A DNA stretch of 50,680 nucleotides from Candidatus Magasanikiibacteriota bacterium (GCA_046590235.1 JBKJTY010000011.1:1-50680), one strand, 5' to 3'. Positions 1,885 to 24,151 are shown, counted from the first letter of the stretch. Translations and numbers: made by a program. The notes: generated by a model from the letters alone, not told the origin.

Positions 1885-2736
1885 ATGGACGTTTCAGTAA
1901 TTACGGTCACTTGGAACTCAGCTGGTAAAATCGCTGAACAAATTCGCTCTGTAGAGAAAGCGTTTGTTAAGCGTACCTATGAAGAGTTTGTGGTGGATAA
2001 TGCGTCATCAGATGGCACTGCTGCTATGGTGGAAAGAGATTTTCCACTTGTTAAATTAATGTCTCAAGCACGTAATCGAGGGTTTGGTGCAGCAAATAAC
2101 GAAGCTGCACGACGAGCGCAAGGGAAGTACTTATTATTTCTGAATCCAGATATGCGTTTGGAAGCGGGGAGTCTCGATAAAATCTGTGATTGGATGGATA
2201 ACCGTCCAAAGGCGGGGATTGTCAGTTGTAAATTAGTAAATGAAAAAGGACAAGTAAATAAAGATGCGCTGCCTCGCCGATTTCCAACCTTAAAAGACCA
2301 ACTAATAATTCTTTTAAAACTCCATCATTTCTTCCCAAAATTACTTAACGATTATTTGTTTAGTGATTTCAATCCTGAAAAAGAACAAATGGTCGACAGT
2401 GTGCGCGGATCGTTCATGCTCATGCGCCGTGAAGTTTACCAACAGCTTGGCTGGGCTTTTGACCCTCGTTATTTTATTTGGTTTGAAGATGTTGATGTTT
2501 GCCGTGAAGTCTGGCGCCTCGATTACGCTGTCATGTACACGCCAATTATCAGCGCTGTAGATTATGTCGGCCAAAGCTTTAACCAACGCCCTTCTGTCTG
2601 GAAACAAAAACAATTTTCCGCGAGCATGCTCATCTACTTTAAGAAGTGGGGGCCAGGCTATGCGGCTTTCATGGTGGCCGTGGCGCGACCAATAGGTATT
2701 GCGCTCGTTTGGTTACATTCAAAATTTAAAAAATAA
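1885..2736 (+). CDS. Glycosyltransferase family 2
   Basis: VSVITVTWN, VVDNASSDG, NRGFGAANN, FLNPD, FIWFEDVD motifs. Confidence 0.92.
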   Translation: MDVSVITVTWNSAGKIAEQIRSVEKAFVKRTYEEFVVDNASSDGTAAMVERDFPLVKLMSQARNRGFGAANNEAARRAQGKYLLFLNPDMRLEAGSLDKICDWMDNRPKAGIVSCKLVNEKGQVNKDALPRRFPTLKDQLIILLKLHHFFPKLLNDYLFSDFNPEKEQMVDSVRGSFMLMRREVYQQLGWAFDPRYFIWFEDVDVCREVWRLDYAVMYTPIISAVDYVGQSFNQRPSVWKQKQFSASMLIYFKKWGPGYAAFMVAVARPIGIALVWLHSKFKK

Positions 2737-2748
2737 AGTTAGCAACGG

Positions 2749-2822
2749 TGTCATTCCCGCGAAGGCGGGAATCCAGGACACCCAACATCGTATCCTGGAT
2801 CCCCGCCTTCGCGGGGATGACA
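2749..2822. repeat. Family A palindromic element, empty copy
   Basis: tgtcattcccgcgaaggcgggaatccaggacac-ccaacatc-gtatcctggatccccgccttcgcggggatgaca. Confidence 0.95.
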
Positions 2823-2851
2823 AATTGGCGCAACCCAAGCAATTCACTATT

Positions 2852-3892
2852 ATGTCTAAAGTAATCGTACAATTAGTCACTTGGAATGGCGCTGCGTATA
2901 TCCCGTATCTTTTTGCATCGTTAAAAAATCAAACTTCCAAAGATTGGGAGTTATTTATTTTGGATAATAATTCCAGTGATAATACAGTTGCCGCAATTGA
3001 CGAGGCCTTGAAAGATTTCCCAGTACCAACTCAATTTATAAAAGGTGAAGAAAATCTTGGTTTTGCAAAAGGCCACAATGTACTTTATAAAAAATCTACA
3101 GCGCCCTACGTTCTTCTACTCAACCAAGATGTGTACCTGACTAATGATTGTATTGCGTCGTTGGGATTATTCTTAGATGCTCATGATGACGTTTCAGCTG
3201 TGTCGCCACGTCTCATGCGCTGGCAATTTGATATTGCTGATAGCAACCTCCATAAGAGTTTTACCAACGACATCGACGCGATTGGTTTAAAAGTATTTCG
3301 TAATAGGCGTGTTATTGAACAGTACACCAAACAGTATTGGGGAAGCCTTTCCATGCAGCTACCTAAAGAGTTGGAAGTTTTTGGCGTCTCTGGAGCATTC
3401 CCAATGTATCGCAGAAGCACGGTAGACTCAGTGGCCTATGCTGATGGTGGTATTTTCGATGAATCCTACGTGGCATATAAAGAAGATATGGATTTAGCTT
3501 TTAGGTTGCAAGAAGCTGGTACAAGAGCTTACGTGCTTACCAATGTAGTAGCCTATCATGACCGCACCGGTGCAGGAGCGCTGGAACTCTCAGATCGCGC
3601 GGCTATAGCTAATAAACGAAAGCAGTCAAAATACGTGAGTTATCACAGCTACAAGAATCATCTTCGTACTTTGTATAAACATGAATACTGGCAGAACCTC
3701 CTCCTTGATCTTCCTTGGATTTTGTGGTATGAAATAAAGAAGTTTGGCTATTACTTTTTGCTCGACCGGGCCATTTTAAAAGGCTTAAAAGAGGTTTGGC
3801 AGGACAGAAAAAATTTGAATGAAAAAAGAAGTTTGATTAAAGCTAAGCGTGCCCTAAGCTGGAAAGCCATGCGCCGCTGGTGGACAGTATGA
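2852..3892 (+). CDS. Glycosyltransferase family 2 (start moved from 2699 to 2852)
   Basis: MSKVIVQLVTWNG, ILDNNSSD, NLGFAKGHN, LLNQD, YKEDMDL; the upstream extension only reads through the repeat. Confidence 0.9.
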   Translation: MSKVIVQLVTWNGAAYIPYLFASLKNQTSKDWELFILDNNSSDNTVAAIDEALKDFPVPTQFIKGEENLGFAKGHNVLYKKSTAPYVLLLNQDVYLTNDCIASLGLFLDAHDDVSAVSPRLMRWQFDIADSNLHKSFTNDIDAIGLKVFRNRRVIEQYTKQYWGSLSMQLPKELEVFGVSGAFPMYRRSTVDSVAYADGGIFDESYVAYKEDMDLAFRLQEAGTRAYVLTNVVAYHDRTGAGALELSDRAAIANKRKQSKYVSYHSYKNHLRTLYKHEYWQNLLLDLPWILWYEIKKFGYYFLLDRAILKGLKEVWQDRKNLNEKRSLIKAKRALSWKAMRRWWTV

Positions 3893-4734
3893 CCGATATA
3901 AATATCGTATTTCTAAACTACTTCATGAAGGATGATATCCTCCATGCGGTCGAATCAGTTGTCAAAGATATTGCCAACTGTCCTTATAGCGTCCAAATCA
4001 CTGTTGCTGATAACTCCGAAAATAAAGATGGCATGAAAGAAGCGCTTATAAAAAAGTTCCCACAAGTTAGTTATGTTAACTGCGGTTGTAACATTGGTTT
4101 TGGAAAGGGGAATACTGTTGGTTTTAAATCCTGGACAGCCCGATATTATTTCGCTTTAAATCCCGATACAGAAATTATTGAAAATAGCCGCACTATCGAA
4201 CGTATCATTCGTTTCATGGATGAACACCCTAAGATTGGTGCAGTTGGTCCAAAACTTTTAAATCTCGACGGTTCACTTCAGTATACTTGTTTCCGTTTTG
4301 ATTTCCGCTCAATCCTGATTAAACCGTTCAAACACATTAACTGGGATAAAAAATACGCCTTTGTTAAAAAACACGCCAACCGACTGCTCATGAAAGATTT
4401 TGATCATGCCAGCACTCGACCGGTAGATTGGGTCCTTGGTGCCGCGATTGTCGTGCGCCAAGAAGTGGTGAACGAAATTGGCTGGTTTGATGAGCGTTAT
4501 TTCATGTATATGGAAGACGCTGACTGGTGCCACACCATGTGGGAGCACTCCTGGCCTGTCTATTATGTCCATGATATACTTGTCAAACATGCCCACGCCA
4601 GAGAATCCGCTAAGATTCCGGGTATTTTCAGGGCAATATTCAAAAATAAACTAGCTCGCATCCATGCCGCCAGCTGGCTTAAATATCTTTGGAAATGGCG
4701 GGGTAACCATAAATACTATGCACCACTCAGCTAA
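3889..4734 (+). CDS. Glycosyltransferase family 2
   Basis: ATGA overlap with the previous stop; VADNS, NIGFGKGN, ALNPD, DWVLGA, YFMYMEDAD motifs. Confidence 0.9.
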   Translation: MTDINIVFLNYFMKDDILHAVESVVKDIANCPYSVQITVADNSENKDGMKEALIKKFPQVSYVNCGCNIGFGKGNTVGFKSWTARYYFALNPDTEIIENSRTIERIIRFMDEHPKIGAVGPKLLNLDGSLQYTCFRFDFRSILIKPFKHINWDKKYAFVKKHANRLLMKDFDHASTRPVDWVLGAAIVVRQEVVNEIGWFDERYFMYMEDADWCHTMWEHSWPVYYVHDILVKHAHARESAKIPGIFRAIFKNKLARIHAASWLKYLWKWRGNHKYYAPLS

Positions 4735-4749
4735 AAAGTGTGCGTGATG

Positions 4750-5127
4750 GTGTCATTCCCGCGAAGGCGGGAATCCAGGATACTCAACTATGCGACATAA
4801 TGGAAAATATTACGTTTATATTATAGCTAGTGAGAAAAACGGTACGCTATACATTGGGGTAACCAACGACCTCATAAAAAGAGTTTTCGAACACAAGAAT
4901 GGTAGTTATGAAGGTTTTTCAAAAGAAAATAAAGTAAGCAGTTTAGTTTATTACGAAGAGTTTAGGGAAATCGGTGATGCCATTACGCGTGAAAAACAAC
5001 TTAAAAAATGGAACCGTGCTTGGAAATTACGTTTGATTGAAAAAAATAATTACGCTTGGCGTGACTTGTATAATGAATTAAATCCTTTATAATGTATCCT
5101 GGATTCCCGCCTTCGCGGGAATGACAC
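4750..5127 (+). mobile_element. Putative autonomous family A element: GIY-YIG gene between perfect 34-bp inverted repeats
   Basis: 4750-4783 gtgtcattcccgcgaaggcgggaatccaggatac is the exact reverse complement of 5094-5127; no target-site duplication visible. Confidence 0.75.
4790..5092 (+). CDS. Stand-alone GIY-YIG nuclease (~100 aa)
   Basis: YYVYII...LYIGVTNDLIKRVFEH...LVYYE...AITREKQLKKWNRAWKLRLIEKNN. Confidence 0.93.
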   Translation: MRHNGKYYVYIIASEKNGTLYIGVTNDLIKRVFEHKNGSYEGFSKENKVSSLVYYEEFREIGDAITREKQLKKWNRAWKLRLIEKNNYAWRDLYNELNPL

Positions 5128-5133
5128 AATTGT

Positions 5134-6231
5134 ATGCACCACTCTCCTAAAGTCGCGATCATCTATTTATCATTCTATTCAGAACCGTATATTAACGACG
5201 TTGTTTCTGCTTTGAAAAAAATTACTTACCCAAAGGATAAGGTGGAGCTTATTATCGTTGATAATCCACATCCAAAATACGGTAGTTCAGTCCGCTACTT
5301 AGAGGAAAATGTTATGCCGCTTTCCGGTAGTGAATTGCCGCATGTAACACTTTTACCGCAGAAAGAAAATCTTGGTTTTGCTGGTGGAAATAATGTCGGT
5401 ATCAAATGGGCGCTTGATAATGGTTTTGATTATATTTATTTACACAATAATGACGGCTTTGTCGCGGCAGATTTCCTTGAGCCGCTCGTTAAGGCTGTTC
5501 AAGAAGATGAGACGATCGGTGTTGTCCAGTCGCTTATCCTCATGCACCCAGAAACTGATCTCGTTAACACTGCGGGCAACAAATACCATTATCTTGGTAT
5601 GGCATATTGCGGTGATTTCCGTGTTAATAAAAATGCACTCCAATTACCAGCTGTTAAAAAAGTTAATTATGCGAGTGGGGCAGGTTGTTTGCTCCGAGCA
5701 GATTTACTAAAAAAATATGGTCCATGGGATGAGGATTATTTCTTGTACCATGAAGATGTTGAGTATAGTTATCGTTTGAAAGCGGTTGGGTACAGTGCAG
5801 CGGTTGCTCGTGATTCAATTTTTTTTCATAAATATGCTTTTGGACGAACGGCACAAAAATTCTTCTTTATTGAACGAAATCGAGTCGGGGTCCTCTTAAC
5901 TTTTTACAAATGGCCGACATTGGTACTTATCTTGCCAATGTTTATCATCCTTGAAATTGGTTTACTATTATTCTCTGTTAAGGGTCATTGGTTTACATCA
6001 AAAATTAAGGCATACTTCTATTGGTTGAACCCAGGCAATTGGTCCATGTGGGCTAAAAAGCGCGCCACTGTGCAAAACATGCGTACAGTTCCGGATAGCA
6101 TGTTACTCTCTGACGCCGTGGGGGATGTTAACTTTAATGACAGTTCAGTAAAAAACCCATTGTTAACCTATATTGGCAACCCCCTTATGTCTATCTATTG
6201 GGCGGTTGTAAAACGATTATTATTTTGGTAG
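5134..6231 (+). CDS. Glycosyltransferase family 2
   Basis: IIVDN, NLGFAGGNN, LHNND, YFLYHEDVE motifs. Confidence 0.9.
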   Translation: MHHSPKVAIIYLSFYSEPYINDVVSALKKITYPKDKVELIIVDNPHPKYGSSVRYLEENVMPLSGSELPHVTLLPQKENLGFAGGNNVGIKWALDNGFDYIYLHNNDGFVAADFLEPLVKAVQEDETIGVVQSLILMHPETDLVNTAGNKYHYLGMAYCGDFRVNKNALQLPAVKKVNYASGAGCLLRADLLKKYGPWDEDYFLYHEDVEYSYRLKAVGYSAAVARDSIFFHKYAFGRTAQKFFFIERNRVGVLLTFYKWPTLVLILPMFIILEIGLLLFSVKGHWFTSKIKAYFYWLNPGNWSMWAKKRATVQNMRTVPDSMLLSDAVGDVNFNDSSVKNPLLTYIGNPLMSIYWAVVKRLLFW

Positions 6232-6242
6232 GGTACTAAAAT

Positions 6243-6332
6243 TGTCATTCTGAGCGCAGCGAAGGATCTTCCTCTTAGTCAAATTACAGTAAAATGGATA
6301 ATAGGAAGATCCTTCGGTTCCTCAGGATGACA
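6243..6332. repeat. Palindromic TGTCAT-tagged element, family B
   Basis: tgtcattctgagcgcagcgaaggatcttcctctta...taataggaagatccttcggttcctcaggatgaca; related copy at 22872-22966. Confidence 0.85.
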
Positions 6333-22871: not shown

Positions 22872-22966
22872 TGTCATCCTGAACGTATGTGAAGGATCTT
22901 CCTCTTAATACCGTGTTACCGGTTAGTTGGTTAATAGGAAGATTCCACGCTTCGCTCTGAATGACA
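22872..22966. repeat. Family B palindromic element
   Basis: tgtcatcctgaacgtatgtgaaggatcttcctctta...taataggaagattccacgcttcgctctgaatgaca. Confidence 0.82.
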
Positions 22967-24076: not shown

Positions 24077-24151
24077 TGTCATCCCCGCCTACGCGGGGAT
24101 CAAGGATACCACAACGACGTATCCTGGATTCCCGTTTTCACGGGAATGACA
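24077..24151. repeat. Family A palindromic element, diverged empty copy
   Basis: tgtcatccccgcctacgcggggatcaaggatac-cacaacgac-gtatcctggattcccgttttcacgggaatgaca. Confidence 0.9.

Follow-up and report, generated by a model that had tools for sequence, protein, structure and literature searches.

A GIY-YIG nuclease gene of the Ssn type packaged between inverted hairpin repeats in a Candidatus Magasanikiibacteriota genome: a recently gained cassette with a possible part in repeat spread

The question raised by this locus is why a small GIY-YIG nuclease gene should be packaged inside a perfect palindromic repeat, at positions 4750 to 5127, when other copies of the same repeat arms nearby enclose next to nothing. 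The window, by which we mean the whole stretch of DNA analysed (50,680 nt from Candidatus Magasanikiibacteriota bacterium, GCA_046590235.1 JBKJTY010000011.1:1-50680), had been read in an initial annotation as containing an autonomous/non-autonomous pair in which a minimal GIY-YIG nickase spreads or maintains its own flanking palindromes. The best overall explanation of our results, which we hold with high confidence, is that the locus is a 378-bp Ssn cassette, flanked head to head by hairpins and recently gained; that it also takes part in spreading the repeats is a more tentative proposal.

The Ssn family of nucleases and their hairpin targets, the NTS/SRM repeats, which include dRS3, were described by Chenal et al. 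(Nat Commun 2025;16:2388; PMC11893778). The NTS (Neisseria Transformation Sequence), CGTCATTCCCGCGMAVGCGGGAATCYRG, a hairpin of 28 nt with the dRS3 palindrome inside it, is spatially tied across phyla to ssnA (NMB0047/NMV_0044 in N. meningitidis, 94 aa, CDD cd10448). Biochemistry on four homologues established binding that is restricted to ssDNA and strand-specific, followed by an upstream cut: SsnA binds the NTS as single-stranded DNA only and in one strand sense only, cuts a few nt upstream of it, has no action on dsDNA or RNA, and loses its cleavage activity when carrying Y6A, Y17A or E64A (PMC11893778). In the same work 42% of the Ssn homologues were flanked on both sides by SRM, the NTS-ssnA-NTS layout was called 'identical to' an insertion sequence and likened to the pairing of RAYT and REP, and the only role shown in vivo was the restriction of incoming single-stranded DNA during natural transformation of Neisseria; candidate phyla are mentioned nowhere in that paper. 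The nuclease-hairpin link that drew attention to the window is real, and it was already published in 2025 (PMC11893778). The initial comparison with a REPtron that uses a different nuclease fold stands as an analogy but had already been drawn there, and the word nickase is imprecise, because the characterised members cut single-stranded DNA only and show no dsDNA activity.

The cassette consists of a left arm (GTGTCATTCCCGCGAAGGCGGGAATCCAGGATAC) at 4750-4783, a hairpin repeat with its NTS sense on the + strand; the ssn gene at 4790-5092 on the + strand (303 bp, 100 aa plus stop, with a PF01541 match); and a right arm at 5094-5127, the same hairpin repeat with its NTS sense on the - strand. The whole unit of arm, ssn and arm measures 378 bp. 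The two arms are perfect 34-nt reverse complements of each other (inverted-repeat score 34), and the open reading frame starts 6 nt past the left arm and ends 1 nt short of the right arm; both the coordinates and a reverse-complement check agree with the packaging as it was first described. The SRM/NTS core of the left arm, TGTCATTCCCGCGAAGGCGGGAATCCAG, occupies 4751-4778 and the SRM core of the right arm 5099-5126, and the inverted repeat reaches 3-4 nt beyond TGTCAT (ATGG/ATTG). As single-stranded DNA the left arm is predicted to form a hairpin of 8 bp whose loop is GAAG (z = -3.6), and the predicted fold of the right arm has z = -4.0. Between the left arm and the ATG of the window gene lies a leader of 6 nt, TCAACT. 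A Shine-Dalgarno-like AGGA motif at 4777-4780, placed 9 nt before the ATG, is formed with the help of the inner extension of the left arm, GATAC, and through this motif the arm may also serve ssn expression. A promoter and terminator scan of the cassette gave nothing above shuffled expectation: no promoter belonging to ssn itself was found, nor was a T-run terminator signature in the arms at the cassette, and ssn is probably transcribed by read-through from the glycosyltransferase operon.

When aligned to the NTS CGTCATTCCCGCGMAVGCGGGAATCYRG, the arm is identical at 27 of 28 positions, with T in place of the first C. Both cassette arms fit the SRM pattern HGTCWYN(0-2)YYVSBRHN(0-5)WNVSBRGN(0-2)RNCYNB, which has 59 matches in the genome against 2 in the reversed genome. 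A search with GTCATYCCC-N8-GGGRATC gave 56 matches in the 917-kb genome and none with the reversed pattern, which puts family A, first noticed within the window, at 56 arms genome-wide. The dRS3 consensus ATTCCC-N8-GGGAAT that had been ascribed to each arm is indeed present, but some arms carry an ATCCCC/GGGGAT variant, and every arm of the window's four pairs has one form or the other. The arm hairpin is under selection: the 8-bp stem, compared over 49 distinct arms taken from other genomes, shows pairing in 99.2% of cells, and changes on both sides occur at five of its eight pairs (41 cells), above every shuffle and slid control, with two of the eight pairs fixed by sequence selection and carrying no weight in this result. 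No known RNA family explains the arms: an Rfam gathering search of the whole window returned four tRNAs only, and an Rfam E-value search of the cassettes gave sub-threshold matches only, with FtrB scoring about 30 bits where the cut-off is 66. Outside TGTCAT, no conserved motif in the target or flank was evident among the units. A likeness to the type I-E CRISPR repeat (CCCCGC..GCGGGG hairpin) was considered and dropped, as no repeat-spacer array is present; we take this to be a resemblance between GC-rich hairpins.

The window protein contains a single GIY-YIG domain (PF01541, E = 1.1e-15, residues 6-80). Searches of Pfam and NCBIfam found no second domain and no extra DNA-binding domain in its 100 aa, and the only NCBIfam match, to group I intron endonucleases, was sub-threshold (TIGR01453, 24 bits against a cut-off of 56). 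Y10, Y21 and E68 are invariant in a 22-sequence alignment, H35 is likewise invariant and R31 nearly so. Compared by published residue positions, the spacing of Y10/Y21/E68 is that of the SsnA catalytic residues Y6/Y17/E64 with an offset of 4. Identity to homologues in many phyla is 60-70%; the Betaproteobacteria homologues, for example L079 from Nitrosomonadales, are 60-65% identical and their arms fit the exact NTS consensus. A PDB sequence search found no Ssn structure and returned only distant UPF0213 structures, and the UPF0213/COG2827 proteins (E. coli YhbQ; PDB 1ywl EF2693, 1zg2 BH0048) are only distantly related to the window protein (E about 3e-3). The GIY-YIG homing endonuclease class of the I-TevI and Seg type was considered as an assignment and set aside, the window protein having no C-terminal DNA-binding domain. 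Because the arms match the NTS/SRM and the Y10/Y21/E68 spacing equals that of SsnA, we place the locus in the Ssn/SRM system, an assignment made on catalytic-residue spacing and arm match. The specificity of the window protein for binding and cleaving ssDNA would then be that of its characterised homologues.

The likeness to the Ssn/NTS system extends to a single-domain GIY-YIG protein of about 95-100 aa with the same Tyr/Tyr/Glu spacing, to an inverted hairpin-gene-hairpin layout whose arms match 27/28 NTS positions and have many further copies in the genome, and to the co-variation of distinct nuclease/repeat pairs. The two differ in several respects. The host here is a 0.9-Mb Patescibacteria-like genome, and the tag is TGTC where that of the Ssn/NTS system and of the CGTC-tagged REPs is CGTC. 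In Neisseria the extra copies form mosaic clusters, whereas here they are mostly tight head-to-head pairs with an 8-9-nt spacer. Finally, three Ssn genes and three arm types coexist in this one genome, and the published SRM pattern misses one of these types, family B.

To follow the association of nuclease and arms across taxa, homologues were scanned in one genome per species and the best 80 loci were taken, all of them 55-69% identical to the window protein. These best 80 loci span Pseudomonadota, Planctomycetota, Bacteroidota, Omnitrophota, several candidate phyla and others. A flanking inverted repeat with a score of at least 14 was found at 52 of the 80 loci and at none of the 144 controls shifted by 900 nt; nearly all of the scoring arms read TGTCATTCCCGCG...GCGGGAATCCAG, and most of the weaker cases keep fragments. 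Among 41 relatives, the close homologues (E < 1e-20) have TGTCAT-anchored arms, and the distant GIY-YIG proteins (E about 1e-8 to 1e-10) were found without flanking arms. The arm type tracks the nuclease clade, with four protein clades and four arm types. Proteins with the signature YILASxxNGTLYIGVT have arms of the type TCCCGCG...CGCGGGA, those with YIMASxSGVLYIGVT have CCTGAGCG...CGAAGGATC, those with YILTxxxxTVLYVGVT have CCTGAAC...GTTCAGG and those with FVYIxTNxxxxVLYTG have TTGCGAG. Arm distance correlates with protein distance across 59 loci (Mantel r = 0.52), a value reached by none of 5000 permutations. The expectation that homologues across taxa would be flanked by cognate, co-varying arms, which the initial annotation had put forward, is thus borne out. 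On an Ssn tree of 93 columns, most forks of which are unresolved, the phylum labels change 29 times against 33.4 +/- 0.7 times for shuffled labels, so the tree is nearly uncoupled from taxonomy; this near-random pattern may be counted toward horizontal transfer.

Comparison within the genus bears on when the cassette arrived. Against the 56 matches of the arm pattern in the window's genome, there are 0 in each of three same-genus genomes, and these three congeners, which have no arms, give only distant GIY-YIG matches. More widely, at least 10 arms are present in ten relatives, of which eight have a close Ssn gene and the other two truncated or weaker matches; three relatives that have a close Ssn and no type A arms carry other arm types. 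The number of Ssn copies in sister genera runs from 0 to 9 or more, a patchy, multi-copy distribution. The orthologous junction between the glycosyltransferase genes that flank the cassette, a comparison already suggested at the outset, is an empty site in every one of the three congeners: two have a junction of 21-22 nt, and in the third the genes overlap. This genome comparison shows that the cassette and about 56 arms entered the lineage after its split from the three sequenced congeners and multiplied there.

No other mobiliser of a familiar kind was found. Domains of Y1_Tnp (RAYT/IS200; PF01797) and IS110 transposases are missing from the whole genome (95.6% complete), so that the lack of a RAYT or IS110 enzyme first noted for the window holds genome-wide. 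No target-site duplication was found in 19 of 20 units, whose longest flanking repeat is 7 nt and lies within the control range. The sole exception is a 12-nt direct repeat, TATGCACCACTC, around the window cassette (4716-4727 and 5131-5142), which extends to about 20 nt with mismatches and is placed asymmetrically, with a gap of 23 nt to the left arm but of 7 nt to the right arm. The repeat duplicates the sequence where the upstream glycosyltransferase gene ends and the downstream one begins, and we rejected it as a target-site duplication because it is a duplicated gene junction. The counterpart of the TATGCACCACTC copies is a single overlapping segment in the third congener and a pair of diverged copies 21-22 nt apart in the other two. 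Since the two copies are more alike in the window's genome than in the congeners, the junction duplication may be linked to insertion of the cassette; exact insertion footprints are not definable at the distance of these congeners (76-78% protein identity). A contig search found no other contigs that encode the neighbouring glycosyltransferase.

The genome contains three Ssn genes, each inside its own arm type. The window gene has type A arms (...CCAGGATAC). The copy on contig C7 has type A' arms (...CCAT) and is a pseudogene, as it carries a frameshift and a TAG. The copy on contig C24, with 51% identity, lies between arms of family B (TGTCATCCTGAGCGCAGCGAAGGATCTTCC...), about 11 of which occur in the genome and which the published SRM pattern does not find. 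The family B arms include two pairs in the window that hold no ORF: one at 6243-6332 (TGTCATYCTGAGCG..CGAAGGATCTTCC), cognate to the third Ssn gene on C24 and not to the window gene, and a second at 22872-22966, located by repeat detection.

The remaining gene-less pairs of the window confirm the sibling copies of the arms that had been reported with 8-9 nt inside. The type A head-to-head pair at 1-66, whose left arm is cut by the contig start, has 9 nt between its arms. The type A pair at 2749-2822 has 8 nt between its arms and an inner sequence of CCAGGACAC-CCAACATC-GTATCCTGG; as ssDNA it is predicted to fold at -34.1 kcal/mol (z = -10). The pair at 24077-24151 has 9 nt between arms with differing stems (CCCCGC vs TCCCGT), and each arm nevertheless forms its own hairpin in a predicted three-hairpin structure. 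Genome-wide, 38 of the 60 type A/A' arms make up 19 convergent head-to-head pairs, a gene being present in two of the 19; one of the 19 (C10:12837-12862) has no inner sequence and is a single symmetric hairpin matched on both strands. Counting type A only, the gene is held by 1 of about 20 units, or by 1 of about 17 pairs. The inner sequence of type A pairs is CCAGGAYAC-(C)CAACGT(C)-GTRTCCTGG, in which YCAAC is shared with the leader TCAACT of the window gene. Three type A' gene-less pairs read CCAT-N9-ATG-C-N6-ATGG, and the portion CCAT-N9-ATG-C agrees with the C7 cassette, over its leader and start codon, at 10 of 13 positions. Because these leader pieces are retained (YCAAC in type A, leader plus ATG in type A'), the gene-less pairs look like internal-deletion (MITE-like) copies of full cassettes rather than virgin targets. 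The autonomous/non-autonomous pairing initially proposed is favoured by this deletion-copy anatomy, by the tie between nuclease and arms and by the absence of the system from the congeners, but it is not a new idea.

Two groups of known repeats offer a comparison for how such copies might spread. The CGTC-tagged REPs (Di Nocera et al., BMC Genomics 2013;14:522; PMC3733652) include dRS3 (CGTC-1) and some Rickettsia RPEs, are mostly head-to-head dimers and 'apparently lack a dedicated transposase'. They resemble the arms described here in being short palindromic stem-loops that carry a conserved tag at one end, in occurring in several phyla and in having no link to a RAYT or transposase, and the gene-less sibling copies in the window are head-to-head dimers of just this kind. 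The difference is that no associated enzyme was known to that study (PMC3733652), whereas here and in PMC11893778 the associated gene is Ssn. The second group is the REPtron (RAYT with GTAG-tagged REPs/REPINs) and IS200/IS605, in which, by analogy with our cassette, a small nuclease gene is bracketed by hairpins that would be recognised as ssDNA; numerous gene-less repeat dimers elsewhere and the lack of target-site duplication are further points in common. The fold and chemistry of a GIY-YIG enzyme are unrelated to theirs, being hydrolytic with no covalent tyrosyl intermediate. The window gene is GIY-YIG and not Y1, and its tag is TGTC and not the GTAG of the REPtron. In IS200/IS605 both ends are processed on one strand, whereas here the hairpins are inverted and the recognised strand differs at each end.

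The mechanism that we propose takes its first steps from the characterised homologues. Ssn would bind an arm only when it is single-stranded and folded into a hairpin, in one strand sense, and would then cut on the 5' side of the (C/T)GTCAT tag, about 3 nt away. Given the inverted orientation of the arms, the left end is predicted to be cut on the top strand and the right end on the bottom strand, in both cases immediately beyond the cassette. Replication or DNA uptake would expose the hairpins as single-stranded DNA, and Ssn would then cleave them. Since rejoining DNA is beyond a hydrolytic GIY-YIG nuclease, transposition of any kind must borrow host functions; host replication or repair might be used, for example if the lagging-strand template were nicked and template switching then took place at hairpins. 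The unit would on these terms be a selfish, horizontally moving element. That Ssn cleavage of exposed hairpins underlies the spread or turnover of the repeats is a proposal that we put forward tentatively, with the odds somewhat against it. That the cassette is an autonomous mobile element with Ssn as its only enzyme, and the gene-less head-to-head pairs its non-autonomous copies, we consider possible but doubtful. Counting against mobility are the 19 of 20 units that have no target-site duplication, the presence of a gene in few type A units, the pseudogene state of the A' gene and the in vivo role in Neisseria, which is control of transformation and not mobility.

If the proposal of an autonomous element were true, it would add a new class of transposon to the known DDE, HUH, serine, tyrosine and Cas1 types, and the long-missing mobiliser of the CGTC-class REPs would be found. 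More generally, if Ssn drives the spread of the repeats, the mechanism of transposition would be a new one and the origin of dRS3/NTS-type repeats in many bacteria would be explained. The genus would be a natural test case, with 0 arms in three species and 56 arms and three cassettes in the fourth.

The alternative that survives best is a domesticated host function, in which Ssn cuts incoming ssDNA at the repeats during transformation and thereby tunes which DNA recombines; the repeats would as a corollary be kept as marks of particular loci, and a selfish origin would still be compatible with this. We regard such a function as a serious minority reading. It has been shown in vivo for SsnA and the NTS in N. 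meningitidis (PMC11893778). The present genome encodes both ComEC (E = 8.9e-54) and DprA (E = 9.5e-76), so that uptake of single-stranded DNA is plausible, and the window ssn gene is intact and highly conserved. Against it stand the three same-genus genomes without Ssn or arms, which imply that the function is dispensable in this lineage, and the fact that one of the three Ssn copies has decayed to a pseudogene; the patchy, multi-copy distribution and the near-random phylum pattern look, moreover, like those of a selfish element.

Many GIY-YIG enzymes are homing endonucleases, and a homing endonuclease gene is the second alternative. According to this explanation the arm pair is older than its gene: an empty pair is cut in the middle by the nuclease, and the gene is copied into the loop when a filled copy serves as the template for repair. 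That the ORF lies precisely within the loop of such a pair, 6 nt and 1 nt from the arms, agrees with this origin, as does the family to which the enzyme belongs. We judge it very unlikely all the same: the characterised Ssn proteins do not cut dsDNA and cut 5' outside the hairpin, not between the arms, and past the 100-aa core there is no DNA-binding domain. Homing should fill the type A pairs, whereas only 1 of about 17 has the gene; the leader and ATG in gene-less A' pairs fit deletion better than an untouched target, and arms of only 33 nt are short for recombinational repair.

The third alternative, that the arms act as ordinary regulatory hairpins of the REP type (terminators or mRNA stabilisers) or are moved by some other transposase and that the GIY-YIG gene lies between them incidentally, draws on the arms being intergenic hairpins that would also form in RNA, and on the finding of no dedicated transposase for CGTC-class REPs (PMC3733652), but is next to negligible given the gene-arm association (52/80 loci vs 0/144 controls), an arm type that follows the protein clade, a genome without RAYT or IS110, cassette arms without a T-run terminator signature and an RNA form that SsnA does not bind (PMC11893778).

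Returning to the Ssn cassette as we read it, the locus alone adds an example from the candidate phyla (Patescibacteria-like) to the Ssn family. Its comparative value lies in the question of mobility left by PMC11893778, to which the all-or-none occurrence among congeners, the empty site, the leader remnants and the lack of another transposase all speak. The three nuclease/arm pairs in one small genome are also ready-made orthogonal pairs of enzyme and site for the ssDNA-cutting applications proposed for the Ssn family.

Several minor observations were made on the arms in the course of this work. A solo left arm on contig C34 (87755-87800) has a cassette-type leader (CCAGGATACTCACTT-ATG) that directly abuts the ATG of an unrelated ORF (MKEFKKIT...), for which arm plus leader may be the source of the ribosome-binding site. 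The arms at loci L141-L143 (contigs C26, C12 and C7) match the Francisella sRNA FtrB at 29-31 bits, against a cut-off of 66, a hint that an SRM-like hairpin may be part of the FtrB model of Rfam. In at least four places (C12:4560-4760, C12:1-190, C25:15380-15610 and C26:3285-3500) a solo arm is followed by a repeat of about 210 nt; it reads ...CTCCTTATAAAAGTATTAATAAAATCAATTTTACTTCACTATCGTTC...GTCACTTTCTTTGTAACCAAAGGAAAGTAACCAAAGAAAGTTTCGGGGG...CCCCCGAACCCC, contains hairpins and has no Rfam match. Shorter versions of it occur on contigs C5, C6 and C21, and one copy lies just upstream of dprA.

The arm repeats also break the assembly, since contigs C17, C28, C30 and C34 and the window contig each have a terminus within an arm pair; the pair that closes C34 is nearly the same in sequence as the one that opens the window contig (1-66). 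Arm pairs can in addition inflate ORF calls. An example is the long ORF at 2699-3892, with a TTG start, which reads through the pair at 2749-2822 (...VIPAKAGIQDTQHRILDPRLRGDDK...), where the true start of the glycosyltransferase is probably the ATG near 2853 (MSKVIVQ...).
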